From the NCBI GenBank assembly GCA_965203525.1, contig OZ241898.1, forward strand, positions 4,695,164-4,759,163: a DNA stretch of 64,000 nt, read 5' to 3'. A program made the position numbers and the translations under genes. The stretch's first letter is position 1. Each line of letters opens with the position of its first letter. Source of the stretch: Vicinamibacterales bacterium (lineage in GTDB: Bacteria; Acidobacteriota; Vicinamibacteria; Vicinamibacterales; UBA8438). The notes under the pieces are model-generated. The model was given only the letters and a program-made list of their open reading frames with translations. It ran no database searches and had not been told where the DNA came from. This document shows positions 1 to 46,994 of the stretch, in pieces.

Positions 1-72
1 ATTCCGGCGAAGCAGGTCGTCAAGGCGCGCATCGCGAAGCAGCTCAAGGACGCCGTGCTCCCCGAGGGATGA
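1..72 (+). CDS. 3' end of an ORF entering from the left edge (partial); product not assignable
   Basis: Frame 1 is open from base 1 to TGA at 70-72 (...IPAKQVVKARIAKQLKDAVLPEG*). Its position just upstream of an E2 gene makes an E1 subunit plausible but unproven. Confidence 0.3.
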   Translation: MPAKQVVKARIAKQLKDAVLPEG

Positions 73-101
73 CGTTCCCCGCGGATCGACCGCGCGATTC
101 G

Positions 102-128
102 TCGATCCGGCCGGCGAGGCCGGATCGA
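102..128 (+). terminator. GC-rich hairpin after the upstream ORF (terminator-like, no U tract)
   Basis: tcgatccggcc-ggcga-ggccggatcga forms a perfect 11-bp stem with a 5-nt loop, 30 nt after the stop at 72. Confidence 0.35.
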
Positions 129-227
129 CTTCGATCCAGCCTTCTGCTCCGTACGTGACTTCGGAGGGCCGGCGCCGGCCCGCGCGAGGTCACGGCACGC
201 CTTTCGCCGCACGGCCGGAACCAGCCG

Positions 228-1448: not shown

Positions 1449-1538
1449 CCCCCGGCGGGCTTCGTCATGCGTCCACGGCCCGACGCTGTTTCCCGATCCG
1501 GACGCCCCGGGCGCGCCGTAGCCCCGGCGGGCTTCGCC

Positions 1539-2267: not shown

Positions 2268-2438
2268 GGGCGCGCGGACACAACGCGGCCCGGTGCCGCG
2301 AGGCAGCCCGCGCGCGGCTTCGAGCCGCGAGATCGGCGTCAACGAGTCGGCGCCGACAAAGTGCCGCGAGCCAACCGGCGCGCGGCTTCGAGCTGCAAGA
2401 TCGGCGTCGACGAGGCGGCGTCCGCAAAGCGCCGCGAG

Positions 2439-3287: not shown

Positions 3288-3324
3288 GTCGCGCCGCCCG
3301 CGGCGTGCCGTGCGCGGCTCGCGG

Positions 3325-3330
3325 TATTCT
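3325..3330 (+). promoter_or_regulatory. -10-like hexamer TATTCT 7 nt upstream of the SDR ATG
   Basis: TAnnnT hexamer in a GC-rich divergent intergenic region, directly upstream of the ATG at 3338. Confidence 0.3.
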
Positions 3331-3337
3331 AGTGGCG

Positions 3338-4111
3338 ATGACGAACGACGAACGGACGCCGGCGCAAGGGGGAGACGCCCGTTTCCGCGGGTTGGCGGCG
3401 GTCGTGACCGGCGGGTCGCGCGGGATCGGACGCGCCGTGGCGGAGAGCCTGCTGCGGCGCGGCGCCGACGTCCTGATCGCGGGGCGCGCGGCGGGGCCGC
3501 TGGCCGCCGCGGCGGCCGAACTGGCGCGGGTCGCGGCGAGCGCCGGCGCCGGCCGCATCGAGACCCTGGCCGCCGACGTGCGTCGTCCCGCCGACGCCGA
3601 GCGGCTGGTCGCCGCCGCGGCGGACCGCTTCGGCGGCGTCGACGTCCTGGTCAACAACGCCGGGGTCGGACGCTTCGAGGCGGTCGCCGAGCAGTCCATC
3701 GACGACTGGGCGCAGGTGATCGAGACCAACCTGAGCGGGGTCTTCTACTGCTGCCGGGCCGCGATCCCGGTCCTGCGGCGGCGGGGCGGCGGGTGGATCG
3801 TCAACGTCAGCAGCCTCGCCGGCAGCTACCCGTTCGCGAACGGCGCCGCCTACTGCGCGTCGAAGGCGGGCCTCGACGCGTTCACCGCCGCCCTGATGCA
3901 GGAAGTGCGTTTCGACGGCATCCGGGTGAGCGCGGTCGCGCCCGGCTCGGTGGGGACCGCGTTCGCCGGCAGCGACGACCGGCACGCCGCGGCGCCCTGG
4001 AAGCTGGCCGCCGACGACGTCGCGCAGGTGGTCGTCGACCTGCTGGGCCACGAGGCGCGGAGTCTGCCCAGCCGGGTCGAGATCCGTCCGTCGCAACCCC
4101 GCAAGGGCTGA
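3338..4111 (+). CDS. Short-chain dehydrogenase/reductase (SDR)
   Basis: TGGSRGIG cofactor motif, NNAG, and the YCASK catalytic Tyr-x3-Lys. The ORF is open from GTG 3305; the ATG at 3338 is preferred. Confidence 0.9.
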   Translation: MTNDERTPAQGGDARFRGLAAVVTGGSRGIGRAVAESLLRRGADVLIAGRAAGPLAAAAAELARVAASAGAGRIETLAADVRRPADAERLVAAAADRFGGVDVLVNNAGVGRFEAVAEQSIDDWAQVIETNLSGVFYCCRAAIPVLRRRGGGWIVNVSSLAGSYPFANGAAYCASKAGLDAFTAALMQEVRFDGIRVSAVAPGSVGTAFAGSDDRHAAAPWKLAADDVAQVVVDLLGHEARSLPSRVEIRPSQPRKG

Positions 4112-4129
4112 GCGCCCGGGTGAGGAGCC

Positions 4130-4468
4130 ATGTGGATTCTGCGCGCGACCATCGAGGAACGGACCCGGACCTTCCGGTTGCCGCCGGGCGCGGTGCGGAC
4201 GCTGGGAAGGGGCACGAACGCCGACTTCATCGTCGCCGACGCGCTCGTCTCGCGCGTCCACTGCCGGCTCACCGCGACCGAAGAGCATCTCGTGATCGAG
4301 GATCTGAAGAGCACCAACGGCATCTTCGTCAACGAATCCCGCGTCCAGCTCGCCACCCTCGAAGACGGCGACCGCGTCAAGATGGGCCACGCGGAGTTCC
4401 GCGTGAACCGGGCGGCCCCGGACGGGCCTTCCCGCATCCGGACGGACGAGCACGTCTCCGGCGCATGA
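4130..4468 (+). CDS. FHA domain protein (stand-alone, 112 aa)
   Basis: RTLGRGTNADFIVADALVSRVHCRL...EDLKSTNGIFVN matches the FHA core (G-R ... S-x-x-H ... N-G). Confidence 0.85.
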   Translation: MWILRATIEERTRTFRLPPGAVRTLGRGTNADFIVADALVSRVHCRLTATEEHLVIEDLKSTNGIFVNESRVQLATLEDGDRVKMGHAEFRVNRAAPDGPSRIRTDEHVSGA

Positions 4469-4528
4469 CACGCGGACCGCGGATCGCCGACGCCATCGGC
4501 GGCCGCGGCGGCCGCGGCGGCGCGCAGG

Positions 4529-6265
4529 CTATTCGGCAGGCAGGTTCCGTTCGATCCAGTCGATGAGGACCTCGGCGACCCGCGGCGTGATCTCGCGGTT
4601 CGCCGGCGGCGCATCGTCGCCCCCGGCGCCGGCCGCCGGCAGCAGCAGGTGATCGACGCCCTCGAGGGTGGCGAGCTCCACCGTCGACTCCCGGCGCCCC
4701 CGCAAGCGGGCCACCCGCTCGAGGCGTTGCGCGTGATACGGCGGCACTCGACGGTCCGCGGCGCCCTGGATCAGCAGCAGCGGCTGGCGCACCCGGCGCA
4801 CGGCGGCGGTCGGGTCGAAGGCGAGGAAGCTGCGGAACAGGGGCGTGTCGGCCTGCCTGCGCAGCGCGTCGGGGATGCCGTCCCACCCGCCTTCGCCGAG
4901 GACGGCGCGATGGATGCGGGTCTGCAGATCGATGCGCTCCCGTCGTTCCTCTCCCGTCGTGCCGGTGCGCCGCAGCTCGTCCCGCTGCTGCTCCAGCACG
5001 AACGCCGCGCCGTTGGCGCCCGGCGTCGCCAGCAGCGCCAGCCCCCCGATCCGGTTCTCGCGGCGCGCCGCCAGCAGGCCGATCCAGCCGCCTTCGCCGT
5101 ACCCCACCGCGACGATGCGGTCACGATCCACGTCGTCGCGCCGCCGGAGGTAGCGCACCATCTCGCGCACGTCGCCGGCGTAGTCGCCCAGCGCGGCCGA
5201 TTCGGCCCGGCCGCCGCTCTGTCCGAAACCGCGCTTGTCGTAGCGGGCGACCACGAACCCGCCGTCCGCGAGCGCCCAGGCGAGCTGGCGGAAGATCGGG
5301 ACGCCCGCCACCGTCTCGTCCCGGTCGACCGGGCCGGTGCCGGGCACCAGCAGCACCGCCGGCCAGCGGCCGCCGGGCGGCGGCGGCGCGTCCACCGGCG
5401 TGATCACCGTGGCCGCGAGACTGAACCCGGCCGCGCGCACGCGCACGCGCTCGCTGCCGGGGTGCGGCGGATCGGTGGTCAGCCGCGCCGAGACCGACGC
5501 GACGTCGCGCCGCGCGACCTCCACCGCGGCGTGCGGCAGGCTGACGCGCAGCAGCCGGCCGCTCTCGTCGATCCACACCTCGGCGTCGAGCGGCTGCCCG
5601 GGATCGACGAACGTGATGCGGTAGGTCCGCGCCTCGATGATCCGTTCGGCGGTCTCGACGTGCTGAATGCCGGCCGCGTCGACCCGCGCCGACAGGAAGC
5701 CGCGGGGCGGGACGTAGATCGGCAGCTCGTCGCCCGGCTGCGACACGCCCAGCCGCGCGGCCAGCGCTTCGTAGCCGGCGAAGATCGAGTTGGGCAGCAG
5801 GACCGCCGCCGGATCGATCCGGTCGCCGGTCGTGCTCCGCCGGTCCCCCTCCTGCAGGGTGTTGGCCGCGGCGCCGTCCGCGAAGGTGCTCTCGAGGCGG
5901 AAGGGAACGCCCGCCCGCGAACCTTCGAGGACGAGCCGCCGGGGGCGCCACCGCGGGTCGTACTCCGCTTCGAAGACCCGCGTGTCGACCGGGACCGGCG
6001 CCGTCAACTGGCCGCTCGCCTGCACCAGCCACCCGCCGTCGTCCGTCCGGACCACGCGCACGCGCTCGAAACCGGCGGGCGTCGAGCCTGCGAAGACGTT
6101 GAAGAGAGCCTCGCCGGCGGCCGGATCGGCCGCCGGCTGCGCCCGGCCGGCGCCGGCGACCGCGACCGCGGCCGCCGCCAGCACGCAGAGCGCCAGGCGC
6201 ATGCCCGGACGAAGTCGTTGCCGCACGAAAGTCAGCATATCATCCGGCAGACCGCGGGGACACAT
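4529..6265 (-). CDS. Secreted alpha/beta-hydrolase-fold protein with N-terminal extra domain; nucleophile Ser apparently absent
   Basis: Signal-like N-terminus (LALCVLAAAAVAVAGAGRAQ) and an alpha/beta-hydrolase region (VLLVPGTGPVDRDE ... IQGAADRRVP ... GVDHLL). The nucleophile elbow reads GYGEGG instead of G-x-S-x-G. Confidence 0.7.
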   Translation of the reverse strand: MCPRGLPDDMLTFVRQRLRPGMRLALCVLAAAAVAVAGAGRAQPAADPAAGEALFNVFAGSTPAGFERVRVVRTDDGGWLVQASGQLTAPVPVDTRVFEAEYDPRWRPRRLVLEGSRAGVPFRLESTFADGAAANTLQEGDRRSTTGDRIDPAAVLLPNSIFAGYEALAARLGVSQPGDELPIYVPPRGFLSARVDAAGIQHVETAERIIEARTYRITFVDPGQPLDAEVWIDESGRLLRVSLPHAAVEVARRDVASVSARLTTDPPHPGSERVRVRAAGFSLAATVITPVDAPPPPGGRWPAVLLVPGTGPVDRDETVAGVPIFRQLAWALADGGFVVARYDKRGFGQSGGRAESAALGDYAGDVREMVRYLRRRDDVDRDRIVAVGYGEGGWIGLLAARRENRIGGLALLATPGANGAAFVLEQQRDELRRTGTTGEERRERIDLQTRIHRAVLGEGGWDGIPDALRRQADTPLFRSFLAFDPTAAVRRVRQPLLLIQGAADRRVPPYHAQRLERVARLRGRRESTVELATLEGVDHLLLPAAGAGGDDAPPANREITPRVAEVLIDWIERNLPAE

Positions 6266-7301
6266 GGACGTGAAAGCCGACGACTACCGGATTCTGCGCG
6301 CCGGCGCGGGTTTCGTCGAGCTCGCGGACCGCGGCTGGCTCGAGGTCGCCGGCCAGGACCGCGCCGCGTTCCTGCAGGGACTGCTGAGCAACGACGTCGC
6401 CGCCCTGCCGCCGGGGGGCGGGTGCTACGCCACCATGCTGACGCCGCGGGGGCGCATGATCGCCGACCTGCACGTCTTTGCCGACCGCGGCCGCCTGCTG
6501 CTGGACGTCGACGGCGGCGTGGCGGACCGGTTGCGGCAGCGGTTCGACGATCTCGTCTTCACCGAGGACGTGCGCATCGACGACCGCACGGCCGGCCTGG
6601 CCGCGTACGGGGTGCACGGGCCGGGCGCCCGCGCGGTGGCGGAGGCGCTGACCGGGGCGCCGGCCGGCCGGATGGCGGTCTGCGAGCATCGCGCGCTGGC
6701 GATCGGAACGGCCGCCGGTCTGGTGGCGCGGACCGACGACCTGGGCGTGGAGGGCTACCGCGTCGTGGTGGAGCGGCCGGCCGCCGAGGCGCTGCGACGC
6801 GCGCTCGCGGCGGCCGGCGCCGCCGCGGTGGAGCCGGCCGCCGCCGAAGTCGTCCGCGTCGAATCGGGCCGCCCGGCGTTCCCCGGCGACATGGATCAGG
6901 ACACGATCCCGCTCGAGGCGGGGATCGCCGACCGCGCCGTCAGCTTCGACAAGGGCTGCTACGTCGGCCAGGAGGTCATCGTCCGGATCCTCCACCGGGG
7001 CGGGGGGCGGGTCGCGCGCAGGCTCGCGGGGCTGACCTGCGAACGGTCCGCGGACCCGGATTCGCCGCTGCCCTCCCACGGCGCGGCGATCTTCAGCGGA
7101 GACGACGAAGTGGGGCGCGTGACCAGCGCGGTGCGCTCGCCCGCGGTCGGGGCGGTCATCGCGCTCGGTTACGTCCGCCGGGAGCTGGCGGACGCCGCCG
7201 ACGCCGGCGGGGCGCCCGCGCAGGTGGCGTTGGGGACCGAGCGCGTTCCCGCCGCCGTGACCGCCCTGCCGTTCGTGCGCTCCGGCGACCCCGGCGGGTG
7301 A
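6264..7301 (+). CDS. ygfZ: YgfZ/GcvT-family folate-binding protein
   Basis: Aminomethyltransferase-like N-terminus (GWLEVAGQDRAAFLQGLLSNDV) and the KGCYVGQE signature. The ATG at 6264 is in frame within a longer ORF starting at 5790. Confidence 0.85.
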   Translation: MDVKADDYRILRAGAGFVELADRGWLEVAGQDRAAFLQGLLSNDVAALPPGGGCYATMLTPRGRMIADLHVFADRGRLLLDVDGGVADRLRQRFDDLVFTEDVRIDDRTAGLAAYGVHGPGARAVAEALTGAPAGRMAVCEHRALAIGTAAGLVARTDDLGVEGYRVVVERPAAEALRRALAAAGAAAVEPAAAEVVRVESGRPAFPGDMDQDTIPLEAGIADRAVSFDKGCYVGQEVIVRILHRGGGRVARRLAGLTCERSADPDSPLPSHGAAIFSGDDEVGRVTSAVRSPAVGAVIALGYVRRELADAADAGGAPAQVALGTERVPAAVTALPFVRSGDPGG

Positions 7302-7544
7302 CGTCCCCCGGCCGTTCGACGACGTCGCTCGCAGCCCGGCCGCAAACACGCACCCCCGGCGCGGGATGGCCGGAGGAGACCGAAGAGTCCCCGTGCCCGC
7401 GCGAGGAACAGGCGCGGACGAGGATCGATCCGCCGCTCAGGCGATTCCACACGCGGTCACTCGGGGGATTCGTTCCCTGTGCGTCCGGGCTCGGCGGTAG
7501 CTCCTTCTCGACGCGGAGCCCGTGCATGTAGTTTCGACAGAACG

Positions 7545-8251
7545 TCATCTACTTCTCGTGGGTGTATGGATCTTCTCCGTCTTGGTTTCGTCTGCTGATG
7601 GTTCCTCTGTCTGCTCAACTATCTTTTTTATCCACCATGGCTCCGTTTCCAAGAAGTGACTGATTGCCTTCCGTATTACCATCGGCGGATTCATTCCGTC
7701 TTTTAGCATGGCGTTCCATGCCTGCGTCACTTCTTCGTCTCTCTCGGGTTTAACGGTCCCGCTGTGTGTCAGGGAGTTCCTGGCCCGATGGATCGCTTGC
7801 AGATCCGGCCACCATCTGGTTTGCGTTGGCCGGCTCTTTTTCGTCAGCTCCGGAAGGACATCCTTCAATAAGTCTATCACGCTACTTCGTCCTACCATTT
7901 TTGGTTCTTCCTTGCAATGCTCGTACATCGTCTCGTGTACGAATGTTTCTATCGCCGCGGTTGCGCTGTACACCGTCAGTGTTACTGCTTCCATCCAATC
8001 CAAGCCCAATTTTTCGATCTCTTCCTGTTCGTGTCCTGTCAGTTTCTTCAGTTTCTCAAGTGCTCTTGCAGCTCTCTTCCATTCCTTTGCTGTCGAGCTC
8101 AGGTGCAGCGCCTTCTTGTTTGCTGCTTGTAGCTGTGACCGCCTCAGTTGTGGAACTTGCTCATAGAGCGCATTGCATGCGTAGATGAACAGTCGTCGTC
8201 CGCCCATGTTCTCGTCGTCGTCCACTACTCTTACCGGCTCGTTGTCCTTAG
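7545..8251 (-). pseudogene. 3' part of a HEPN-like gene interrupted by an IS element (the longest self-contained ORF is 7545..8225)
   Basis: AT-rich coding region. R-N-S-L-T-H (Rx4H, nt 7764-7781) follows predicted helices. The frame stays open upstream of GTG 8225 right up to the IS junction at 8251. Confidence 0.6.
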
Positions 8252-10011
8252 CCTGGATTATTCATGAAGGTCGGGCATGAGGCCCCGACGGGCCATGCTC
8301 GGCCACGAAACGGGGTCTCGGACACGCGTCGGTGCGCGGGCCGCGACGCGTGGAACAGCCTTCACGGGTCTGGCGGTTGCGGACAGACGGATTCAGGACC
8401 GCCGAGGGCGAGCAACCGTCATCGAAGGCGTCGTTCGCGGGCCCGGCGGTTGCGGACAGGCGGGTTCAGGCAAGGCTCCGCCGTCGCGGGCGGTGCGGTT
8501 CGGGCTACGGGCTGCGCGGGTTTCGGACTACCCGGCGCGGGCGCCGAGGGCCAGCGCGATGCGCCGCCATGCGTTCAGATGCGGCGTCCCCCGGGGCAGA
8601 TGCAGGACGATGCGGCGCACGGAGCCGACGACGTGCACGCCGAGCTTCAGCAGCCGGTTGCGCAGCCACGTCACCTGGGTGCGGGCACAGCCGGTTCGCG
8701 CCGCCCGCAGCCGCAGTTCCTGCATGAGCACGTAGGCGGCAGCCGTCAGCAACACGCGCAACTGGTTCGCCAGGAACCGGCAGCAGCTCGTGCGGTCGAT
8801 CTGCAGACCGTCCAGCAACTCCTTGATCCGGTTCTCGACGTCGCCGCGGGCGCAGTAGACCTTCTCGTAGACGAAGCGCGGATTCTGCGGGAGATTCGTC
8901 ACGACGAAGCGCGGATTGTCCCGCGGCTCGCGGCCCGGATGCCGGACCACTTCGGCCTTGATCACGACCCGGCGTTCGCGCTTCCACGTGCGGGCCGCGT
9001 AGCGGGTGTCGGTATAGACGTGCTCGGTCCGGCCGCTGGCCCCGCTCTGCGCGCGGGCCGCCGCCATGGCGGATTCGGCCTGCCGCACCAACACCGCGTT
9101 CCTGCCCATCGCCACCACGTAGTCGAGTCCCGGTTCCGCCTCCAGGAAATCGAAGACCTCCGGGGTCGCAAAGCCCCCGTCGAGCCGGACGAGAAACGAC
9201 GTCCGCGGAAACGCCGCCCGCAGCATCGGCAGCAGCCGTCTCAGCAGGCCCAGGCTCCCGTCGGCCGCCACCGCATTGCCCGGCCGCAGCACCGCCGCGC
9301 ACAGATACTGCTCCGTCTCGTCGTTGAAGGTCAGGAACGCGAGCAGCGGCAGATAACACCAGCCGCCGTAGTGTCCGTTGAAGAACGAAAGCTGTTGTGC
9401 GCCATGCGTCAGGTCGTCGGTCGGGTCCAGATCGATGGTGATGCGCCGCACCCGCCGCCCCAGCCGGCGCCGGTGTCGCTCGATGACGCTCGCGGCCAAC
9501 TCCCGCGCCATGCGATAGAGCGCGCCGCGGCCCGGGCTGTTCTCGAACCGCGAGATCGTCGGTTGCGACGCCAGCGGCGCGCCGGCCACCGGGTCCCGTC
9601 CGAGCAGCAGCTTGTGAACGGGGTCGTCGGCCAGGTCGTCGGCATCGTTGCCGTCGGGGTGACCGCACGCGATGCCGAAGATCCGCTGCCCGACCAGTTC
9701 CGCGAGCGTGTGCCGAATCTTCTCCGGGTCGCGCCGGTCGGCGAGACAGCGGGCAAACGTCTTGACGAGGCCGTACACGCGCTCGGCCGCCTTGAGGAGA
9801 ACGGCGCCGCCGTCGGAGCTGGCGTGCTCGCGGTCGAAGGTGGCGACGAGGGGCTTGTCGAACAGTTCCGGGAACAGGACAGTCTGTGGTATCGTGTCGG
9901 TCGTCACGCAGGGGCCTCCGTGGTGGTGAAAATGGCTGTTGCCACTGCGATTTTACCGCGCGGAGGCCCTTGTGTCTCTCCCGGATCGGCACCCCCGGTG
10001 AATAATCCAGG
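8252..10011 (-). mobile_element. IS1380-family insertion sequence (complete: IRs, transposase, 4-bp TSD)
   Basis: Perfect 13-bp terminal inverted repeats CCTGGATTATTCA (8252-8264) and TGAATAATCCAGG (9999-10011). A TTAG direct repeat flanks the element (8248-8251 and 10012-10015). One 459-aa transposase ORF lies inside. Confidence 0.9.
8528..9907 (-). CDS. IS1380-family DDE transposase
   Basis: The N-terminus FDREHASSDGGAVLL...RRDPEKIRHTLAELVGQRIFGIACGHPDGNDADDL...LASQPTISRFENS is characteristic of IS1380 transposases. Confidence 0.9.
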   Translation of the reverse strand: MTTDTIPQTVLFPELFDKPLVATFDREHASSDGGAVLLKAAERVYGLVKTFARCLADRRDPEKIRHTLAELVGQRIFGIACGHPDGNDADDLADDPVHKLLLGRDPVAGAPLASQPTISRFENSPGRGALYRMARELAASVIERHRRRLGRRVRRITIDLDPTDDLTHGAQQLSFFNGHYGGWCYLPLLAFLTFNDETEQYLCAAVLRPGNAVAADGSLGLLRRLLPMLRAAFPRTSFLVRLDGGFATPEVFDFLEAEPGLDYVVAMGRNAVLVRQAESAMAAARAQSGASGRTEHVYTDTRYAARTWKRERRVVIKAEVVRHPGREPRDNPRFVVTNLPQNPRFVYEKVYCARGDVENRIKELLDGLQIDRTSCCRFLANQLRVLLTAAAYVLMQELRLRAARTGCARTQVTWLRNRLLKLGVHVVGSVRRIVLHLPRGTPHLNAWRRIALALGARAG

Positions 10012-37387: not shown

Positions 37388-38605
37388 TCAGCGGCGCGGG
37401 AACGCGGACAACAGGTCCGAGCCGGCGACGGCGTCGAAGCACCGTTCGTGTCCCAACGCGTTCCAGTGGCCCTCCTGCGGCCACTCGAACCGCTGGCCGT
37501 GCCGCCGGTGGTGGGCGATGAACCGCGACTGCAAGTCGATGGCCGCGTACCCCGCGCGGTCCGCGTTCGCCAGGAAATAGCGGCGCATCACGTCCACGAA
37601 GCTCCCGCGCGCCGCGGCCAGCGACCGGCCGTACCGTATCCCGTCGACCACGAACACGATCCGTCCCGGATCGAGGCCCGCGTATGCGGGCAGCAGGTCG
37701 AGGAACGCATCGACCGCCCGTTTCGAAGCGGCGACCCGCGGCCGCTCCGCGACCCGCGGCCGCTCCGCGCTCGCCGGCGTGTGAACGGGAGACAGCCGGG
37801 GCCCCTGCCGGGAGTCCTCCGCGCCGGTGACCCGGGAACGGACCCGGCGCGCCGATTCCAGCACCTGGAGGTTGTGCCCCAGATACCTGACCAGCGCCGA
37901 CCGCCGCAGCAGCCGGTATGGAAGGGACGGAACGCGGTCGACGCGCTCGAGGGCGAGCCGGCCGCCGCGGTCGGCGAAGTAGTGATACCCCGCCGTCCCT
38001 CCGTACTCGATCAGGCTCTCGTCGTAGTCGTTGCCGATCACGACGACGACCAGCCCGTCCGGCCGGTACGCGTCGCGCGCGTGCCGGGCCCACGCCAGGT
38101 ACTGGCTCAGGGGGGCGCCGGCCATGCCGAAGGAGTAGACGCGGGCGGCCGGTTCCAGCAGGGTCGCGAGCCGGCCGGCGCACGTGGAGCGGAACGGCAC
38201 CATGAACGCTTCGACGTAGCTGTCGCCGACGACGGCGAGGAGCGGGCCGGGGGCGTCCGCCCGGTAGTCGACGTCGCTGACGAAACCGGCGTTGTTGACC
38301 GCCACGGTGTTGACGATCGAGAAGTTCCAGTCCCTGGACCACGTGAACTCCCGATCGGGTTCGAACCGCATGATCGGATGCTCGTCGTCGACCGGCTCGC
38401 GGCGGGTGCTTCCGTGGACCGGCAGGACCCGCAGCAGGAGCTCGACGCCGAGCAGCGGGACGATCCACGCCGCGAGCAACGCCGACGCCCGCACCGTCCA
38501 CGCCGCACGCCGCATCGCAACGGGCCGCGGGGGCCGCCGGCGGAACCATCCTCCGACGAGCCGCCGAGCAGCGGACTGGAAACGAGAGAGCCCCCGCAGC
38601 GCCAC
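37388..38605 (-). CDS. SGNH-fold AlgJ/AlgX-like (DHHW-type) protein, probable polysaccharide O-acyl modification; copy 1
   Basis: N-terminal TM helix, VVGDSYVEA (GDS block), C-terminal EGHWNALGH (D/E-x-H-W). Contains an internal 18-bp duplication encoding ERPRVAERPRVA. Confidence 0.6.
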   Translation of the reverse strand: MALRGLSRFQSAARRLVGGWFRRRPPRPVAMRRAAWTVRASALLAAWIVPLLGVELLLRVLPVHGSTRREPVDDEHPIMRFEPDREFTWSRDWNFSIVNTVAVNNAGFVSDVDYRADAPGPLLAVVGDSYVEAFMVPFRSTCAGRLATLLEPAARVYSFGMAGAPLSQYLAWARHARDAYRPDGLVVVVIGNDYDESLIEYGGTAGYHYFADRGGRLALERVDRVPSLPYRLLRRSALVRYLGHNLQVLESARRVRSRVTGAEDSRQGPRLSPVHTPASAERPRVAERPRVAASKRAVDAFLDLLPAYAGLDPGRIVFVVDGIRYGRSLAAARGSFVDVMRRYFLANADRAGYAAIDLQSRFIAHHRRHGQRFEWPQEGHWNALGHERCFDAVAGSDLLSAFPRR

Positions 38606-38778: not shown

Positions 38779-39978
38779 TCAGCGGCGCGGGAACGCGGAC
38801 AACAGGCCCGAGCCGGCCACCGCGTCGAAGCACCGTTCGTGTCCCAACGCGTTCCAGTGGTCGTCCCGCGGCCACTCGAACCGCTGGCGGTGCCGCCGGT
38901 AATGAGCGATGAACCGCGGCTGCAAGTCGATGGCCGCGTACCCCGCGCGGTCCGCGTTCGCCAGGAAATAGCGGCGCATCACGTCCACGAAGCTCCCGCG
39001 CGCCGCGGCCAGCGCCCGGCCGTCGTACAGACGGGGCCGTATCCCGTCGACCACGAACGCGATCCGCCCCGGATCGAGGCCCGCGTATGCAGGCAGCAGG
39101 TCGAGGAACGCATCGACCGCCCGTTTCGAAGCGGCGACCCGCGCCCGCTCCGCGCGCGCCGGCGTGTGGACGGAAAACAGCCGGGGGTCCTCCGTGCCGG
39201 CGATCCGGGAACGGACCCGGCGCGCCGACTCCAGCGCCTGGAGGTTGTACACCAGATACCTGACCAGCGCCGACCGCAGCAGCAGCCGGGATCGAAGGGA
39301 CGGAGCGTGGTCGATGCGCTCGAGGGCGACCCCCTCCCCCCGGTCGGCAAACTGGTGGAACCTCACCTTCGCTCCATACTCGATCAGGCTCTCGTCGTAG
39401 TCGTTGTCGATCACGACGACGACCAGCCCGTCCGGCCGGTACGTGTCGCGCGCGTGCCGGGCAAACGCCAGGTACTGACTCAGGGGAGCGCCGGACATGC
39501 CGAACGAGTAGACGCGGGCGGCCGGTTCCAGCAGGGTCGCGAGCCGGCCGGCGCACGTGGAGCGGTACGGCACCATGACCGCTTCGACGTAGCTGTCACC
39601 GACGACGGCGAGGAGCGGGCCGGGGGCGTCCGCCCGGTAGGCGACGTCGCTGACGAACCCGGCGTTGTTGACCGCCACGGTGTTGACGATCGAGAAGTTC
39701 CAGTCCTTGGACCACGTGAATTCCTGATCGGGTTCGAACCGGTGGATCGGCTGCTCGGCGTCGACCCGCGCGTAGCGGAGGTATCCGTGGACCGGCAGCA
39801 CCCGCAGCAGGAGCTCGACGCCGAGCAGCGGGACGATCCACGCCGCGAGCAACGCCGACGCCCGCACCGTCCACGCCGCACGCCGCATCGCAACGGGCCG
39901 CGGGGCCCGCCGGCGGAACCATCCTCCGACGAGCCGCCGAGCAGCGGACCGGAAACGAGAGAGCCCCCGCAGCGCCAC
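38779..39978 (-). CDS. SGNH-fold AlgJ/AlgX-like (DHHW-type) protein; copy 2 (tandem paralogue)
   Basis: Most residues are identical to copy 1 in a by-eye alignment. VVGDSYVEA and DDHWNALGH are present. Confidence 0.6.
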   Translation of the reverse strand: MALRGLSRFRSAARRLVGGWFRRRAPRPVAMRRAAWTVRASALLAAWIVPLLGVELLLRVLPVHGYLRYARVDAEQPIHRFEPDQEFTWSKDWNFSIVNTVAVNNAGFVSDVAYRADAPGPLLAVVGDSYVEAVMVPYRSTCAGRLATLLEPAARVYSFGMSGAPLSQYLAFARHARDTYRPDGLVVVVIDNDYDESLIEYGAKVRFHQFADRGEGVALERIDHAPSLRSRLLLRSALVRYLVYNLQALESARRVRSRIAGTEDPRLFSVHTPARAERARVAASKRAVDAFLDLLPAYAGLDPGRIAFVVDGIRPRLYDGRALAAARGSFVDVMRRYFLANADRAGYAAIDLQPRFIAHYRRHRQRFEWPRDDHWNALGHERCFDAVAGSGLLSAFPRR

Positions 39979-40172
39979 GACGGCACCATCCTACACTGGC
40001 GCCGGCCGCCTCTGGGGTAGTGTCTCCGTCTGATTTTCTCTAACAAGCCCGATATCCGATCCGCATCAGAGCGTCGCTCCCCGTCCGGCGCGCCCGGCGT
40101 TGCGGCCGGGCGGGTTGCGGGCCGTTTTCCGCCCCACCGCCCCGGCGCCATCTGCCTCGTCGCCTTGCGCAT

Positions 40173-40211
40173 CACTGGACAGCGGCGCCGGGATCCGGGA
40201 CACTGGACAGC
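40173..40211 (+). promoter_or_regulatory. 11-bp direct repeat CACTGGACAGC x2 abutting a start codon (operator-like)
   Basis: Copies at 40173-40183 and 40201-40211; the second ends immediately before the ATG at 40212. Confidence 0.3.
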
Positions 40212-40377
40212 ATGGGCAGCAAGCAGCCGGGGCGCCCCTGGACGCTCGAAGAGGACGACGCGATCCGCGCGGCGGCCGCGGCCGAAGCCGCACGGGGCCA
40301 CCCCGAATCTGCAGGCGCGGCTGGCGGAAGTGGCGACGCGGCTCGACACCGGCGACTTCACGCCCGCGGAGGTATGA
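40212..40377 (+). pseudogene. Small Myb/SANT-like HTH ORF, apparently frameshifted
   Basis: The frame from ATG 40212 reads MGSKQPGRPWTLEEDDAIRAAAAAEAARGH. The +1 frame continues PNLQARLAEVATRLDTGDFTPAEV* (stop at 40375-40377). The switch falls at a gggg/cccc run near 40295-40305. Confidence 0.35.
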
Positions 40378-40399
40378 CGAGCTACCAAGGGGGGCGACG

Positions 40400-41005
40400 A
40401 TGGACTTGGCAGTCGTGATCGGATTCGCAGCGCTGCTCGTGACGGTCGCGGGCTTCGGGCTGGGACTTGTGGCGCAGGGTCGGTCAACGAGGAAGAGCAA
40501 CGAGGCAGCGTACCAAGCCATCAAGGAAGACTTCAACAGAAGGTTCGACGGGGTGCAGGCGCAGATGAATCAGCTCGACGCGAAGAACGACGCCGCGTAC
40601 CAAGCCATCAAGGAAGACTTCAACAGAAGGTTCGACGGGGTGCAGGCGCAGATGAATCAGCTCGACGCGAAGAACGACGCCGCCGTGAAGGACCTGAAGG
40701 AAGACGCGCGGACGGCGCACGCCGAGATCGGCGCGAACATCCGCGAATCAGGGGCGCGACTCGACGCCGCCGTGAAGGACGTCAAGGAAGACGCGCGGAC
40801 GGCGCATGCCGAGCTCGGCGCGAACATTCTCCGGGTTGACGAGAACGTCAAGGCGGCGGAGAAGAGGGTCACCGACAACTTCAACGCGCGGTTCGACGAC
40901 CTCCGGGACTACGTCCCACGGGACCCGGCGGGACCCGTGATTGACGCCCCCCGGCTGGATCGGCGATCATGCTTTCGGCCGGTGCGCCCCGCGCGCGCGG
41001 GATGA
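40400..41005 (+). CDS. N-terminally membrane-anchored repeat protein (K-N-x-A-A-[HY] repeat family, unknown function), paralogue 1
   Basis: MDLAVVIGFAALLVTVAGFGLGLV is a TM helix. It is followed by two identical 29-aa repeats (AAYQAIKEDFNRRFDGVQAQMNQLDAKND) and two diverged 29-aa repeats (AAVKD[LV]KEDARTAHAE[IL]GANI). Confidence 0.7.
   Translation: MDLAVVIGFAALLVTVAGFGLGLVAQGRSTRKSNEAAYQAIKEDFNRRFDGVQAQMNQLDAKNDAAYQAIKEDFNRRFDGVQAQMNQLDAKNDAAVKDLKEDARTAHAEIGANIRESGARLDAAVKDVKEDARTAHAELGANILRVDENVKAAEKRVTDNFNARFDDLRDYVPRDPAGPVIDAPRLDRRSCFRPVRPARAG
40508..40681 (+). repeat. Two identical 87-bp in-frame tandem repeats
   Basis: 40508-40594 equals 40595-40681 in my reading. Confidence 0.85.
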
Positions 41006-41063
41006 ACCTCGACGGTCTCGACCTTCATGGCCCGATCTTACGTCCGCGCCACCTTCGCAGGGT

Positions 41064-41384
41064 TCAAGACCCTGCCGGGCGCCGCTCGTCTTCCGGGCGG
41101 CCGGCGCTCTCCATCTGTCGGCCCTTGACCTCGCCGACTTCGAGGAAGAGCTTGTGGAAGTTGCTGTTGACCTCCCGGAAGCCATCCTTGACGTCCCGGT
41201 TGGTCTCCCGGAAGCCGTCCTCGAGCCGGGTCACGATCCGGGCGTGGGCCGTTTCGTTCTTCGCGTGCGTATCCCGGATCTCGTCGCGCAGCTTGTCCTC
41301 GCTGCGGGTGACGATCTTCCAGACCGCCGCCGCGGACAGCCCCACAACCCCGACCACCAGCGCCGCGAGCGGAATCAGGTCCAT
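41064..41384 (-). CDS. N-terminally membrane-anchored helical protein, divergent member of the same family (paralogue 2)
   Basis: MDLIPLAALVVGVVGLSAAAVW is a TM helix. DTHAKNETAHARIVTRLEDGFRETNRDVKDGFREVNSNF shares the AKNE-AHA motif. Confidence 0.65.
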   Translation of the reverse strand: MDLIPLAALVVGVVGLSAAAVWKIVTRSEDKLRDEIRDTHAKNETAHARIVTRLEDGFRETNRDVKDGFREVNSNFHKLFLEVGEVKGRQMESAGRPEDERRPAGS

Positions 41385-41424
41385 CGCAGCATTCTACTCC
41401 GCGCCGGAGCGTAAAGCGTAAAGC

Positions 41425-41824
41425 GTGCTACCGTGGCGTGTGGGCCAAGAGCCGAAGATCAACGCCGGCGAAGGCGCGACCATCCGTGCGATGCTCGGCG
41501 CCGGCGAGAGCATGGGGACGGCCGCGCGCGCCATTGGCGTGACGAAGATGGCCGTCTCGGCGTGGTGCGCCCGCGAGCGCGCAGCCGGCCGTGCCGTGCC
41601 GATCGCCCCGCAGCGGAAGCGCGCGACGCCGCCGACGTCCGGACGGCACGCGGTTCTACGTCGGCGGCCTCGACCAGCGGCGGCGCCCGTTGCGGGCCGG
41701 CGACCTCGACGCGGCCATCGCCGAGGCGGCCGGGCTGGACGCGGCCGACGTGGGGCAGATCGTCGACGTCTGGCGCTACGGCAGCCCGGACCCGGTGGCG
41801 GTCTCGGTGGACGTGGGGGGTTGA
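41425..41824 (+). pseudogene. HTH protein gene, apparently frameshifted (+1) near 41630
   Basis: The frame from GTG 41425 reads GEGATIRAMLGAGESMGTAARAIGVTKMAVSAW (HTH). The frame ending at 41824 reads PDGTRFYVGGLDQRRRPLRAGDLDAAIAEAAGLDAADVGQIVDVWRYG...VDVGG*. Its stop lies 3 nt before the next gene's ATG. Confidence 0.45.
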
Positions 41825-41827
41825 ACG

Positions 41828-42616
41828 ATGGACGACTGGATGGCCCCGATCGGATTCGGCACGCTGCTCGTGACGGTGGCGGGGTTCGGGGTGGCGCTGG
41901 TGATGCTGGTTCAGTCGATGCGGAAGAGCAACGACGCCGCGCACGCGCGGACCGAACAGAACCTCCGCGACATCAAGGGTGAGGTGACGGCACAGGTGCA
42001 GGCGCTCGACGCGAAGAACGAGGCGGCGCACGCGAAGACCGAGCAGCACGTCCGGGACCTCAGGGGCGAGGTGCAGGCGCTCGACGCGAAGAACGAGGCG
42101 GCGCACGCGAAGACCGAGCAGCACGTCCGGGACCTCGACGCGAAGAACGAGGCGGCGCACGCGAAGACCGAGCAGCACGTCCGGGACCTCGACGCGAAGA
42201 ACGAGGCGGCGCACGCGAAGACCGAGCAGCACGTCCGGGACCTCGACGCGAAGAACGAGGCGGCGCACGCGAAGACCGAGCAGCACGTCCGGGACCTCGA
42301 CGCGAAGAACGAGGCGGCGCACGCGAAGACCGAGCAGCACGTCCGGGACCTCGACGCGAAGAACGAGGCGGCGCACGCGGGGACCGCGGAGCGCATCGAC
42401 ACGTCGCGCGCCGAGGTGTTGGGGCAGGTTCGTCATCTCGACGCGAAGAACGAGGCTGCGCACGCGGGGATCGTGGAGCGCATCGACTCTTCGCGTGGCG
42501 AGGCGCTGGCGCGTGCGGACGAACACGCGCGGAAGCTCGACGCGGTTGCGCACGACGTGGCGTTCCTGGCCGGCCGCCAGAAGGAACGCGACCACCGGGA
42601 CGGCAGCGGTGCTTGA
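41828..42616 (+). CDS. N-terminally membrane-anchored repeat protein (K-N-x-A-A-H repeats), paralogue 3
   Basis: MDDWMAPIGFGTLLVTVAGFGVALVMLV is a TM helix. RKSNDAAHARTEQNL follows, then six copies of LDAKNEAAHAKTEQHVRD and two diverged copies. Confidence 0.75.
   Translation: MDDWMAPIGFGTLLVTVAGFGVALVMLVQSMRKSNDAAHARTEQNLRDIKGEVTAQVQALDAKNEAAHAKTEQHVRDLRGEVQALDAKNEAAHAKTEQHVRDLDAKNEAAHAKTEQHVRDLDAKNEAAHAKTEQHVRDLDAKNEAAHAKTEQHVRDLDAKNEAAHAKTEQHVRDLDAKNEAAHAGTAERIDTSRAEVLGQVRHLDAKNEAAHAGIVERIDSSRGEALARADEHARKLDAVAHDVAFLAGRQKERDHRDGSGA
42005..42380 (+). repeat. 54-bp in-frame tandem repeat: 6 identical units (one separated by 21 bp) plus a partial seventh
   Basis: The unit ctcgacgcgaagaacgaggcggcgcacgcgaagaccgagcagcacgtccgggac occurs at 42005, 42080, 42134, 42188, 42242 and 42296. 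A partial unit starts at 42350. Confidence 0.9.
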
Positions 42617-42627
42617 GGAGGGACACC

Positions 42628-42861
42628 ATGCCGAAGACGAGACGAACCCCGGGCGTCGCCGCGGTTCGCGCCCGCGCCGAGCAGGGCGACGCAGCCGCGC
42701 AGAACAACCTGGGGTTCATGTATGAAACCGGCGCGGGCGTCCCGCGGGATGACCGCCAGCGAGTCAGTCCGCCTCACGGCCGACGACCACGCCCTCAGGC
42801 CCCGTCGATCCGGCCGCCGGTCGCCGTGAACGGCGACCGGCGGCCGCTTCTCGGCCGGCCC
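42628..42861 (+). pseudogene. Sel1-repeat protein fragment read through into the downstream GT4 frame
   Basis: A GAGGAGG Shine-Dalgarno sequence precedes the ATG at 42628. MPKTRRTPGVAAVRARAEQGDAAAQNNLGFMYETGAGVPRDD is one Sel1 repeat. The following sequence is Arg/Pro-rich junk in this frame. Confidence 0.4.
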
Positions 42862-43977
42862 GTGGCCCTGTTCATACCATCGCTCGACGCCGGCGGCGCG
42901 GAGCGGGTCATGGTGGAACTCGCGCGCCAGTTGGCGCGGCGCCGGTTCGCCGTCGATTTCCTGGTGACCCGCGGCGGCGGCGCGCTTTGGGGATCGGTTC
43001 CGGAGAACGTCCGGCTGCTGAACCTGAACTCCTGGAAGGCGGTGGCCTCCCTTCCCGGACTGGTTCGGTACGTCCGGCGCGAAAGGCCGGCTGCGCTCCT
43101 TTCCTCGCTGGAAGCGTGCAACGTGGCGGCCCTGCTCGCCAAGCGGTTCTTCGTGCGGGACCTGCGTCTGATCGTGCGCCAGCAAAGCAACCGCACGGCC
43201 CAGTTCCGGGCCGGGGGATTCCGCACGCGCATGGCGCTCGGCGCCATGAAGCGCCTGCTGCCCGCCGCCGACGCGGTCCTCGCCGTGTCGTCCGGCGTGG
43301 CCGAAGACCTGCGGCGGACCGTCCCGCGCGCCGGCCCGGTGTGGCCGGTCCCGAATCCGGTGGTGACGCCCGCACTGCTCGAGAAAGCCCGGGCGCCGGC
43401 GGATCATCCCTGGTTCGGCGACCCGCGCACGCCGGTGGTCCTCACCGCCGGCCGTCTCGCCGCGGAGAAGGACCAGCCGACCCTGCTCCGGGCGTTCGCC
43501 GCGGTGCGCAAAGCGCGTCCCGCCCGGCTGATGGTGCTGGGAGACGGACCGGACCGCGGCCGGCTGGAGACTCTCGCGCGCGAGCTGGGCATCCGGGACG
43601 ACGTCGACTTCCGCGGGTTCCAGCCCAACCCCTTCGCCTGCATGGCCCGCGCGCGGCTGTTCGTCCTCTCTTCGACCTTCGAAGGACTGCCCGCGGCGCT
43701 GATCGAAGCGATGGCGTGCGGGACGCCGGTGGTCAGCACGGACTGTCCGAGCGGCCCGCACGAGATCCTGGAAGGGGGCAGGTGGGGGAGGCTGGCGCCG
43801 GTGGGCGACTGGCGCGCGCTGGCGCGGGCGATGCGGGACACGCTCGACGATCCGATCGCGCCGGCGCGTCTGATCGCCAGGGCCGGCCACTACTCCGCGG
43901 CGGCGTCCATGGCGCGGCACCTGGAGCTGCTCCATTGGGTCGCGGCGCGCAAAACGAGACCCGCGGGGCCGTCATGA
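42862..43977 (+). CDS. GT4-family glycosyltransferase
   Basis: VALFIPSLDAGGAERVM...SSTFEGLPAALIEAMACGTPVVSTD. Paralogue of 32138..33310. The GTG at 42862 is my suggestion; the ORF is open from 42613. Confidence 0.8.
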   Translation: MALFIPSLDAGGAERVMVELARQLARRRFAVDFLVTRGGGALWGSVPENVRLLNLNSWKAVASLPGLVRYVRRERPAALLSSLEACNVAALLAKRFFVRDLRLIVRQQSNRTAQFRAGGFRTRMALGAMKRLLPAADAVLAVSSGVAEDLRRTVPRAGPVWPVPNPVVTPALLEKARAPADHPWFGDPRTPVVLTAGRLAAEKDQPTLLRAFAAVRKARPARLMVLGDGPDRGRLETLARELGIRDDVDFRGFQPNPFACMARARLFVLSSTFEGLPAALIEAMACGTPVVSTDCPSGPHEILEGGRWGRLAPVGDWRALARAMRDTLDDPIAPARLIARAGHYSAAASMARHLELLHWVAARKTRPAGPS

Positions 43978-45296: not shown

Positions 45297-45389
45297 ATCG
45301 CCGCGGGGAGGAATCGCGCGGCGCATCGGCACGGTGCGGCCGGTCGGGCTGGTGGTCGATGCGGAGATCGAGCGGCGCAAGACCGATGC

Positions 45390-46994
45390 GTGAAGACCTG
45401 GAGCGATGAAACGATGAACGTCCGCGCCACGGAACGGACCCGCGCCGCGGCGGCCGCCGCGGCGTTCGCCCTGTGCGCGATTGCGCTGTCGTGGCCGGTG
45501 GCCGACCTCGGGACGCCGGGGGCTTTCGACCGCGACGAGTACCAACGCATCGCGTTCAACCTCGCCCGCCACGGAGTGTTCCACGATGCCCGTTCGGTGC
45601 GGGATGTGGGGTCGTATTCGCGCCGGGAGCCGGTCTACCCCCTGTACCTGGCCGCGGTTTTCGCGTCCTCGCCCGAGTTCGCGGCGGTGCCCTCCTGGGA
45701 GTGCATCGAAGACCCGGAATGCGAAGAGGCCGCCCCGGTGCGCGAGCGCGTCTGGCGCCTGACGTTCCTTCTGGCGGGCGCGGCGGTGGCCGTCGCGTTC
45801 CTCGCGACCTTCGTCCTGACGCGAAGCTGGACGGTGTCGGTGGGGATCGGCGGCGGATGGAGCCTGCTGCTGATGCCGCTCGTCCCGACCCGGGACGTTC
45901 CGAGCCTCCTCGCCGGCCTGTTCCTGCTGGTCCATGCGGCCCTGGCCGCGCGGACGTGGCGGAAACCCCGGATCGCGACCGGCGTCCTGAGCGGCCTCGC
46001 CCTGGGCCTGCTGGTCCTGACCAAGGCCGTGTTCCAGTACTGGCTCGCGGGAGTCGCGCTGGTGCTCGCGGCGGGCCTGTGGCGGGACGCGGACCGGCGC
46101 CGGACGCTGGCGCCGGCCTGCGCGGCCCTGGTGCTCGCCGCCTGGGCCCTGACCCTGCCCTGGATGGCCCGCAACGCCGTCGAGGTGGGACACTTCGGCA
46201 TCTCGGGCCGCGGCGGCGAGGTGCTGGCGGTCCGCGCCGAGTACAGCCGCATGACCTGGCCGGAGATCCGCGGGGCGTTCGCGTACTATCTGCCCCACTC
46301 CGCGAGCACCCCATCGAGCGTCCCCTTCCACGGGTTCCGCGCCCTCGCCATGCGGTGGCTCGAACCGGAGACCTTCGGATACGCCCGTTTCGACCGCGAC
46401 AATCCGCGGGGGTTCTACAGACCCGCCATGTCCATGGCGGGAGACGCCGCGGAACGCGCGAGCCGGATCGCCCCCGGGTGGAGAAGTGGCGGCCAGGCGA
46501 CGATTGACGCCGTCCTGAAACGGGCGGCGGCCGATCTGATCCGCGAGGACTGGCTCAAGCACATGGCCCTGACGCTGGTGTTCGCGGAACGCGGGTTGGC
46601 ATTCCCGACCCACGGTTGCAGCACGTTGACCGACCCTGCCGACCAGCGGTTCGGACGCCTGATCGGGTGGCCGGTGGGTCCGGCCTGCCGGCTCGCCCGC
46701 TACGGGACGATGCTGGTCTGGCCGTTCGCCGGCCTGCTGGCGGTCGCCGCCTGGCGGCGGCGCGACGCGAGCCTCGCCCTGCTGCTGCTGCCGGCCGCCT
46801 GGTCGTACGGCGTCCACGCGGCGGCGACCGATTACATCCCGCGCTACTCGCTCCCTCTCCTTCCGGTTCTCGTCGCCGCGACCGCGCTGGCCGTCCACGA
46901 GCTGGCGCCGCGGGCCGATCGGGGCGTCGCCCGGCTCGGGACCGGCGCGCTCGACGCCGTGCGCCGGCGCCTGCCCGCGGGAGGCGGTGGTTGA
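45390..46994 (+). CDS. ArnT/PMT-like (GT39/GT83-type) integral membrane glycosyltransferase
   Basis: Polytopic membrane protein with a first-loop DRDEYQRIAFNLARHG (DE motif). Confidence 0.6.
   Translation: MKTWSDETMNVRATERTRAAAAAAAFALCAIALSWPVADLGTPGAFDRDEYQRIAFNLARHGVFHDARSVRDVGSYSRREPVYPLYLAAVFASSPEFAAVPSWECIEDPECEEAAPVRERVWRLTFLLAGAAVAVAFLATFVLTRSWTVSVGIGGGWSLLLMPLVPTRDVPSLLAGLFLLVHAALAARTWRKPRIATGVLSGLALGLLVLTKAVFQYWLAGVALVLAAGLWRDADRRRTLAPACAALVLAAWALTLPWMARNAVEVGHFGISGRGGEVLAVRAEYSRMTWPEIRGAFAYYLPHSASTPSSVPFHGFRALAMRWLEPETFGYARFDRDNPRGFYRPAMSMAGDAAERASRIAPGWRSGGQATIDAVLKRAAADLIREDWLKHMALTLVFAERGLAFPTHGCSTLTDPADQRFGRLIGWPVGPACRLARYGTMLVWPFAGLLAVAAWRRRDASLALLLLPAAWSYGVHAAATDYIPRYSLPLLPVLVAATALAVHELAPRADRGVARLGTGALDAVRRRLPAGGGG

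Follow-up and report, generated by a model that had tools for sequence, protein, structure and literature searches.

What are small regulator-like genes and membrane-anchored repeat proteins doing in the middle of an exopolysaccharide (EPS) locus? The question is raised by the stretch at 40.15-42.76 kb of a 64-kb piece of a Vicinamibacterales genome (the window, by which we mean the whole of the DNA analysed). Members of this acidobacterial order abound in soils and sediments, and little work seems to have been done on their mobile elements or on their interactions with phages. A sequence-only reading of this DNA had proposed a twice-repeated, intact module of regulator plus membrane sensor. 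We conclude instead that the stretch is probably a decayed, rearranged remnant of at least one copy of an integrase-linked Vicinamibacterales element, left in a strain-variable spot of the EPS locus. As such it would be of a known kind, a scar that a mobile element with small membrane proteins as cargo has left in a variable polysaccharide locus; what is new is the protein family and the element.

A mosaic of intact genes and stumps

We compared the window with related contigs and loci, labelled L001-L044; family members found in the searches are labelled P0007, P0013, P0040 and P0197. Intact relatives are tightly packed and comprise a small open reading frame (ORF) that we call ORF-K, a Myb-like gene, a tyrosine recombinase gene, ORF X, a gene for an anchored protein and a Cys-rich ORF, with another small gene, ORF-C, and anchored paralogues nearby. 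The window keeps three anchored-protein genes (P1, P2 and P3) and X, together with stumps of the Myb-like gene, ORF-C, a helix-turn-helix (HTH) gene and ORF-K; in our comparison all of its small pieces have an intact counterpart in the integrase-linked units. Judged by these alignments, the stretch is a mosaic made up of intact anchored genes and of what is left of their small companion genes. Its parts are as follows.

40151-40274, plus strand: 5' remnant of a Myb/SANT-like gene, consisting of the upstream region and the first 21 codons from ATG 40212 (MGSKQPGRPWTLEEDDAIRAA)
40283-40372, plus strand: 90-nt fragment of ORF-C (EAARGHP/PNLQARLAEVATRLDTGDFTPA), from DNA alignment to L019 and L018 and tblastn with ORF-C of L019 and L044
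40400-41005, plus strand: P1, anchored helical protein of 201 residues, P1 subtype; frame from third-position GC, two tandem-repeat pairs, non-native tail
41064-41384, minus strand: P2, anchored helical protein of 106 residues; third-position GC 0.88, family hidden Markov model (HMM) 1.9e-9
41425-41580, plus strand: HTH-like gene fragment in frame A; third-position GC 0.85-0.93 in that frame up to ~41560 only
41591-41824, plus strand: ORF X, 77 residues, GTG start; conserved part 41651-41821, 82% identical to X of L043
41828-42616, plus strand: P3, anchored helical protein of 262 residues; third-position GC 0.93, family HMM E = 1.6e-44
42629-42760, plus strand: first ~12 codons of ORF-K (MPKTRRTPGVAA), then a Sel1-repeat fragment, both in frame into the GT4 glycosyltransferase ORF

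Because the window has a GC content of 72%, third-position GC is a good marker of true reading frames. It reaches 0.88-0.93 for P2 and P3 and 0.82-0.93 in local windows over most of P1, and second-position GC is low in all three. P1, P2 and P3 are thus real genes, in frame, and the coordinates first proposed for them hold. The dip in overall GC to 0.65-0.66 over P1 and P2 (40500-41500), against 0.71-0.74 in the flanks, is compatible with a foreign or differently constrained origin. We infer that the anchored proteins are cargo of the element and not EPS enzymes, in agreement with the earlier view that the stretch is unrelated to polysaccharide synthesis.

The regulator-like ORFs

The small ORF at 40212 had been read as a Myb-like gene. 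Positions 40151-40274 are 99% identical to L010 13673-13550, with no match beyond. Intact Myb-like genes of 60-106 residues are present in L010, L013, L018 and L043, and such relatives match Pfam Myb_DNA-binding at E = 0.0015 and 0.014, below the family cut-off. ORF 40212 has just 21 codons in common with these homologues, a complete Myb domain being ~50 residues long, and a Pfam scan of it found no match. The next piece, 40283-40372, is ~97% identical to the 5' part of ORF-C of L019 (protein 'GHPPNLQARLAEVATRLDTGDFTPA...'), a gene that is intact in L001, L044 and L019. In the window it carries a 2-nt deletion, found in every strain copy (L008, L011 and L015), and is out of frame with the Myb remnant. 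Because the match to Myb-like genes ends at 40274 and is followed by this frameshifted fragment, we read ORF 40212 as a chimeric pseudo-ORF, in which 21 Myb-like codons are joined to a piece of ORF-C.

The second supposed regulator, a single HTH ORF at 41425-41824, likewise separates into two parts, an HTH-like fragment and ORF X, with a frame change near 41580-41600. Since all eight of the eight strain sequences, from short-read as well as long-read assemblies, have this frame change, it is not a sequencing error; we rejected that cause for the ORF-C deletion too, both frameshifts being common to independent assemblies. Only the left piece, 41425-41580, matches Pfam HTH_28 (E = 0.0045, below the cut-off), and among the fetched loci this fragment is found only in copies of the present EPS locus. 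It is precisely at 41537-41637, where the frame changes, that sequence is deleted or replaced in L010, L012 and L014, and the alignments thus place the end of the fragment at a recombination junction.

ORF X itself is rare: a search of 5.8 billion proteins returned only 10 clusters of homologues, all closely related. Its AlphaFold2 (AF2) model has a beta-beta-alpha-beta-beta arrangement with a predicted local distance difference test (pLDDT) score of 75, two of the five models scoring above 69, and Foldseek found no fold match to it in the PDB at E <= 0.001. X is therefore predicted from the model to be a small alpha/beta protein and not an HTH protein. We also considered X as an excisionase-like HTH protein and dropped the idea, which found no support from Pfam, AF2 or Foldseek.

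The last stump opens with the start of ORF-K, whose consensus is MPKTR..PGVA.AGRRLRL (compare MPKTRTPGVADAGRRLRL in L044, MTKTRTSGVAAAGRRLRL in L007 and MPKTTTPPGVAAAGRRLRL in L001). The Sel1 match that follows (E = 2.4e-4) covers residues 27-49 of the 42613 ORF, which is the GT4 ORF. Sel1-like sequence is also fused to truncated P3-type genes at L006 10001-10477 and L012 2361-3389, which suggests that Sel1 genes, too, often neighbour such genes or recombine with them.

These results bear on the proposal that the stretch holds a self-contained two-gene system, present twice, in which the gene for a small DNA-binding regulator is expressed together with that for a sensor or effector spanning the membrane once, the regulator being, for example, held at the membrane until a signal arrives. 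As had been remarked, the small ORFs do end close to the anchored ATGs: the ORF-C-frame stop is at 40377 and the P1 ATG at 40400, and the stop at 41824 leaves a 3-nt gap between X and the P3 ATG at 41828. Gaps or overlaps are very short in L043 and L044 as well, at a few bases; X and the P3-type gene are duplicated as one unit in L009 and L010; a Myb-like gene, an anchored gene and ORF-C occur together again at a locus with a CitMHS transporter gene; and P0007 and P0013 are preceded by small Zn-ribbon ORFs. However, both regulators in the window are fragments, X has neither an HTH nor a match to a DNA-binding fold, and the upstream partner varies from locus to locus (X, Myb-like, Zn-ribbon or none). 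We consider a regulator-sensor pair quite unlikely, although the anchored proteins may yet act as a sensor, an exclusion factor or an effector. What survives of the pairing is the X and P3-type unit, which travels together in L009, L010, L043 and L044; it is not present twice in intact form in the window. X or the Myb-like gene recurs with an anchored gene at some loci, while the wider family has no constant neighbour. The module was an easy mistake to make, the stumps of pseudogenes having the look of regulators.

Integrase-linked relatives

The clearest intact relatives are L043 and L044. Both have the order phage-type integrase (a tyrosine recombinase of 339-350 residues), X (62-70 residues), P3-type anchored protein (123 or 91 residues) and Cys-rich ORF, with only a few bases between integrase and X and between X and the anchored gene. 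Directly upstream of the integrase, L043 has ORF-K and a Myb-like gene of 106 residues that overlaps the integrase start, and in L044 the unit is surrounded by ORF-C, a P1-type gene, a P2-like gene, an ankyrin protein and the insertion sequence (IS) IS66. In L001, P0007 lies directly behind an integrase and adjoins a ribbon-helix-helix (RHH) gene and ORF-C, and L006 has an integrase stump directly upstream of a family member.

Integrative elements and prophages commonly end in int, a small directionality-type gene and then cargo or 'moron' genes. The L043 and L044 units resemble such ends, with a tyrosine recombinase, an ORF of 62-70 residues and a small membrane protein in succession; L001 has its integrase directly upstream, and the window locus is strain-variable with IS elements nearby. 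They differ in that X has no excisionase or HTH signature, the window copy lacks an integrase, and the rest of the element consists of ORFans. The mobile-element link is firm for the window's subfamily, which is tied to an integrase-linked element almost wholly of ORFans, and less so for the family as a whole.

Elsewhere in the same species, the CitMHS locus holds a Myb-like gene (98 residues), the anchored P0197 (110 residues) and ORF-C (L018 5955-9022, L019 5954-9220 and L020 5949-9025). The three genes sit between an intact CitMHS gene and a near-identical copy of its 3' part, with fused ORF-C::CitMHS ORFs of ~0.7-0.9 kb, an arrangement suggestive of a tandem duplication or of insertion by a single crossover (Campbell-type). 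Downstream, the strains vary, having either DndB and GIY-YIG genes or ISL3 with PLD, HATPase_c_3 and DEAD helicase genes.

A family member was also found in a viral contig, L041 (IMGVR_UViG_3300012932_000048, 1-9490, 71.7% GC), which is probably a Vicinamibacterales phage or satellite. Here the gene has its own Shine-Dalgarno sequence and lies in a head module of unusual gene order: the large terminase comes first, then the family member and an HNH endonuclease, and after these the major head protein, two ORFs, the protease and a possible adaptor and portal; the last two were assigned by eye, and the putative portal ORF has no PHROG match.

Two further observations concern these contigs. At L002 1087-2193, the first ~87 codons of an integrase are replaced by a P1-type N-terminus (a transmembrane helix and two AHAEIGANI repeats), with the junction '...LDAAV|AAIRARL...'; the fusion may be genuine, the result of a deletion, or a chimera of metagenome assembly. 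In the L043 unit, an ORFan of 172 residues (4915-5433, minus strand) contains 'LHDHPRPHVHALV' with a 'HDHPRPHVH' motif, which we take, as a guess that Pfam does not support, to resemble the histidine motif of some relaxases and Rep proteins.

Strain-level turnover

Ten strain-level copies of the EPS locus, ~99% identical, differ precisely in this stretch, which is unstable among strains. L009 has an extra X and P3-type unit inserted at 40911-40914 and a longer ORF-K piece in place of 42634-42771. In L010 there is an IS21 element, and the Myb-like gene is intact; this strain also has a short P1-type gene and a further P3-type gene. In L012, 41402-41637 is missing and P3 is fused to a Sel1-like tail, and L013 has a chimeric P1-type gene. 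The 18-residue unit of P3 is present in six, five or two copies depending on the strain. The locus thus turns over at the level of the population, through duplication, chimera formation, IS insertion and changes in repeat number.

P1 of the window bears the same marks. Members of its subtype have an 'AHAEIGxNI' motif and end in 'FNxRFDDLRDY-KLALK'; P1 departs from the alignment after 'RDYV', and past ~40911 unrelated sequence replaces the native C-terminus ('...RFDDLRDY-KLALK...'). Alignments to L009, L010 and L013 all stop at this breakpoint, 40911-40914, where L009 has ~0.8 kb extra. A protein identical to P2 is encoded on 14-16 contigs, including a 5.34-Mb NCBI contig that also holds the paralogues P0007 and P0197. 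The N-terminus of P2 is that of the canonical member P0040; the tip is divergent in P2 and canonical in P0040. A shufflon or invertible cassette was considered and rejected: the inverted repeats linking P2 and P3 amount to no more than the AKNE-AHA coding motif that both genes contain, and discrete recombinase sites are absent.

The repeats that had been noticed in the anchored proteins proved to be true DNA tandem repeats. P1 has an 87-nt repeat in 2.1 copies (40499-40683; pair 40499-40672) and a 66-nt pair (40675-40827). P3 has a 54-nt array of 5.7 copies at 99% identity (42080-42386), and its 18-residue unit, LDAKNEAAHAKTEQHVRD, occurs in six exact copies, five of them inside the array. The two proteins also share an N-terminus, as had been proposed, over 97 nt at 79% DNA identity (40417-40513 and 41848-41944).

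The anchored proteins as a family

The earlier statement that the anchored proteins fall in no known family stands. P1, P2 and P3 and ten diverse relatives matched nothing but coiled-coil noise in Pfam, NCBIfam, PHROGs and PADLOC, and a sequence profile search of the PDB with the family found no relative. A word-indexed search of 5.8 billion proteins with P3 gave 15 close relatives. An HMMER profile search of 1.84 billion representatives gave 406 matches at E <= 0.001 (41 at E <= 1e-10), many of the mid-range ones covering the repeat region only and looking like coiled-coil noise, and a second profile search gave at least 201 clusters at 90% identity. The result is an uncurated family with diagnostic motifs, of ~200 clusters at that identity and at most ~400 matches in the deeper search. 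A full-text literature search found nothing on this protein family or on the integrase-linked element, so as far as the curated libraries and that search show, the family and the element are undescribed. What the search returned was general only: according to the abstract of PMC5900883, acidobacterial genomes are shaped by phage integration and mobile elements.

In alignments, members open with a short, acidic N-terminal segment and a single transmembrane helix, after which come basic juxtamembrane residues, the motif 'NE-x-AHA-x-I', variable tandem repeats of 7, 14, 18, 25 or 29 residues, and usually a tip that is almost invariant, 'L-[DE]-A-I-A-[RH]-D-V-[AS]-F-[LM]-A-G-R-Q-x-E-R-D' (in short ARDVAFLAGRQxERD). 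The AKN[DE]-A-[HY]-A motif first seen in the window is a genuine family signature. P3 ends in the canonical tip (KLDAVAHDVAFLAGRQKERD), and by these motifs it is a repeat-expanded member of the tip-bearing type; P1, with its 'AHAEIGxNI' and 'FNxRFDDLRDY-KLALK' motifs, groups as a sister subtype. Typical members are 80-130 residues long and encoded by stand-alone genes in several copies per genome. Expansion can go far beyond that of P3: a member at L039 5332-6171 has at least 10 tandem copies of a unit of ~14 residues (EGVQENRRAIQSLT). Close to members of the family we also saw a second, apparently distinct family of N-terminally anchored coiled-coil proteins (L024 1470-1991, minus strand; L028 2487-2789, plus strand), with the C-terminal motif '...VE-x-xF-x-x-[IV]DQRL-x-T[IV]ER-x-x-LP'.

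AF2 models a member of 147 residues as a single continuous helix from residue 5 to 143 (pLDDT 86), so that the predicted helix would be ~20 nm long in this member and nearly 40 nm in P3. Short canonical members have a hydrophobic period of 3.5 residues, which is typical of a heptad coiled coil. In P1, P2 and P3 the period is 3.6-3.64 and hydrophobicity is low (in P3, strongly hydrophobic residues make up 14% and Ala 21%), and for this reason their repeat regions may form straight or weakly associating helices.

Across 131 members, the 15 residues before the transmembrane helix contain on average 0.21 Lys and Arg compared with 3.45 in the 15 residues after it, the C side being higher in 99%. 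Because these residues are concentrated on the C-flank of the helix, the proteins are predicted to be bitopic inner-membrane proteins in N-out/C-in orientation, with only a few residues outside and the long helix in the cytoplasm. Variants that have a cleavable-looking signal peptide followed by a transmembrane helix point to the same topology.

This prediction bears on whether the proteins could be lysis proteins left by a degraded prophage, either Rz-like inner-membrane spanins or of holin type. Like Rz-type i-spanins, they have an N-terminal transmembrane helix, a long coiled-coil region and a conserved C-terminal end; weak matches to Rz-like PHROGs turn up repeatedly, the strongest to phrog_214 (E = 6.6e-5) and phrog_312 (9.5e-4), and one member is in a viral contig. 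Yet these matches extend over nothing more specific than transmembrane and coiled-coil features, and the topology, itself only predicted, is the opposite of that of an i-spanin. No ORF in any frame of 40000-42900 has a lipobox after its start codon, as a candidate o-spanin would; there is no endolysin or holin nearby, the neighbours in the window being EPS genes; and the gene in L041 sits in the packaging module and not in a lysis cassette. We regard a lysis role as very improbable.

Distribution and the case for a host family

A scan of 185,579 species-representative genomes with a broad alignment found 18 loci in 12 metagenome-assembled genomes (MAGs), of which 11 carry a Vicinamibacterales, Vicinamibacteraceae or Acidobacteria label and the remaining one is labelled Gemmatimonadetes; a single 5.27-Mb MAG, OZ251506.1, holds five. 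The same scan with a P3-led alignment gave no confirmed locus, and a scan of JGI metagenomes gave one locus only. Distant members occur in an island with type I restriction-modification, TIR and toxin-antitoxin genes (L021) and beside VapBC (L022).

A number of findings weigh against the interpretation as an element remnant. A tblastn search of the 64-kb window with the L043 integrase found no integrase; it is because L001, L043 and L044 have one and the window does not that we call its copy a remnant. Att-like direct repeats flanking 40.1-42.8 kb were not found. The element family consists almost entirely of ORFans, and it may be a prophage, a satellite or a mobilisable island. With tblastn, no family match was found in 50,697 isolate phages and 72,556 plasmids, and 2.9 million viral contigs gave a single one (a scan of viral contigs with the P1 subtype gave none). 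The ratio pN/pS of nonsynonymous to synonymous polymorphism among homologues, ~0.5-0.6, indicates only moderate purifying selection. Finally, short members keep the same position, between a BCCT transporter gene and a Mo-oxidoreductase gene, in four MAGs (L022, L027, L030 and L034), and a census of 134 neighbouring ORFs from ~25 independent loci showed no constant partner and mostly ordinary metabolic genes; from these last two findings, part of the family behaves like stable chromosomal genes.

These facts lead to the possibility that this is a host lineage-specific envelope or stress family, whose paralogues gather in variable regions and whose association with mobile elements is incidental. 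ElaB/YqjD/YgaM (DUF883), YtxH, DUF948 and PspB are membrane-tethered cytoplasmic coiled-coil proteins, DUF883 being tail-anchored. The present family is like them in being small and bitopic, with a cytoplasmic helical domain, in having several paralogues and in often standing alone; the kept position and metabolic neighbours fit, as do faint precomputed matches of heptad-rich members, to DUF948, DUF2730 and sll1863. On the other hand, direct Pfam scans gave nothing above cut-off for DUF883, YtxH, DUF948 or DUF2730, no HMM similarity rises above noise, the anchor is N-terminal here and not at the tail as in DUF883, and the present family has, in addition, repeat-length variation and a linkage to integrases or phage. 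The tight integrase-X-anchored order in L043 and L044, the integrase or its stump directly upstream in L001 and L006, and the member inside a phage packaging module all speak against a host family, and it is not usual for housekeeping stress genes to form chimeras, decay to pseudogenes and turn over between strains. A host family is, in our view, unlikely as an explanation of the window.

Possible function of the anchored proteins

The long helix of the anchored proteins probably changes in length as its in-frame tandem repeats slip. If the stretch is an element remnant, these proteins might work as follows: helices could pair or bundle into a membrane-tethered stalk, and the conserved tip may bind a partner, either a small protein encoded alongside or a host or phage factor. 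The beneficiary of such a stalk would be the element, through superinfection exclusion, defence or control of its own maintenance, and not polysaccharide synthesis. This functional scheme of bundled stalk, tip-bound partner and exclusion, defence or maintenance role is tentative; exclusion or defence is our best guess, and we hold the scheme to be possible but rather doubtful. In a more specific and still more speculative version, which seems to us on the whole unlikely, the anchored proteins would be putative effectors of an undescribed exclusion or anti-phage function of new small integrase-linked elements, with slippage tuning the stalk and the tip capturing a factor of the incoming element or of the host; recombination between paralogues would then generate new alleles in the population. 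A proven role in exclusion or defence would make this a new and very simple type of effector; otherwise the locus would be an ordinary mobile-element scar.

We compared the proteins with known defence systems. Among the PADLOC models, only the coiled-coil portions of ZorA, JetC, LmuB and Leo were matched, weakly and with no partner genes. The tail of ZorA, from the Zorya system, is also a long helical stalk reaching from the inner membrane into the cytoplasm, and is matched at E = 4e-5 to 7e-5; these matches cover the coiled coil only, and unlike ZorA the family has no MotA/ExbB-like multi-pass domain and no ZorB, ZorC or ZorD neighbours. As for type II toxin-antitoxin systems, no match to a toxin or antitoxin family was found and the partner of the anchored gene is not conserved; the HigA-like and VapBC genes next to members in L021 and L022 are a matter of neighbourhood only.

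Flanking genes

The EPS locus continues on both sides of the stretch. Scans of the window against Rfam and for tRNA genes found no match, and the window therefore contains no tRNA integration target. Downstream are GT4, Wzy_C, MurJ, epimerase and asparagine synthase genes. On the other side are two tandem paralogues.

37388-38605 and 38779-39978, both minus strand: two tandem paralogous genes for proteins of ~400 residues each; AlgX (SGNH-like) Pfam match below threshold for one gene only (E = 0.013)

The EPS setting had thus been described correctly for both flanks, whereas the label SGNH is backed only by this sub-threshold match for one of the two genes. Strain L010 has extra copies of these paralogues nearby. 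Between the Wzy-like and MurJ-like genes lies an ORF of 565 residues (45297-46994) without a Pfam match, which in the strain copies is called as a gene of 526 residues.

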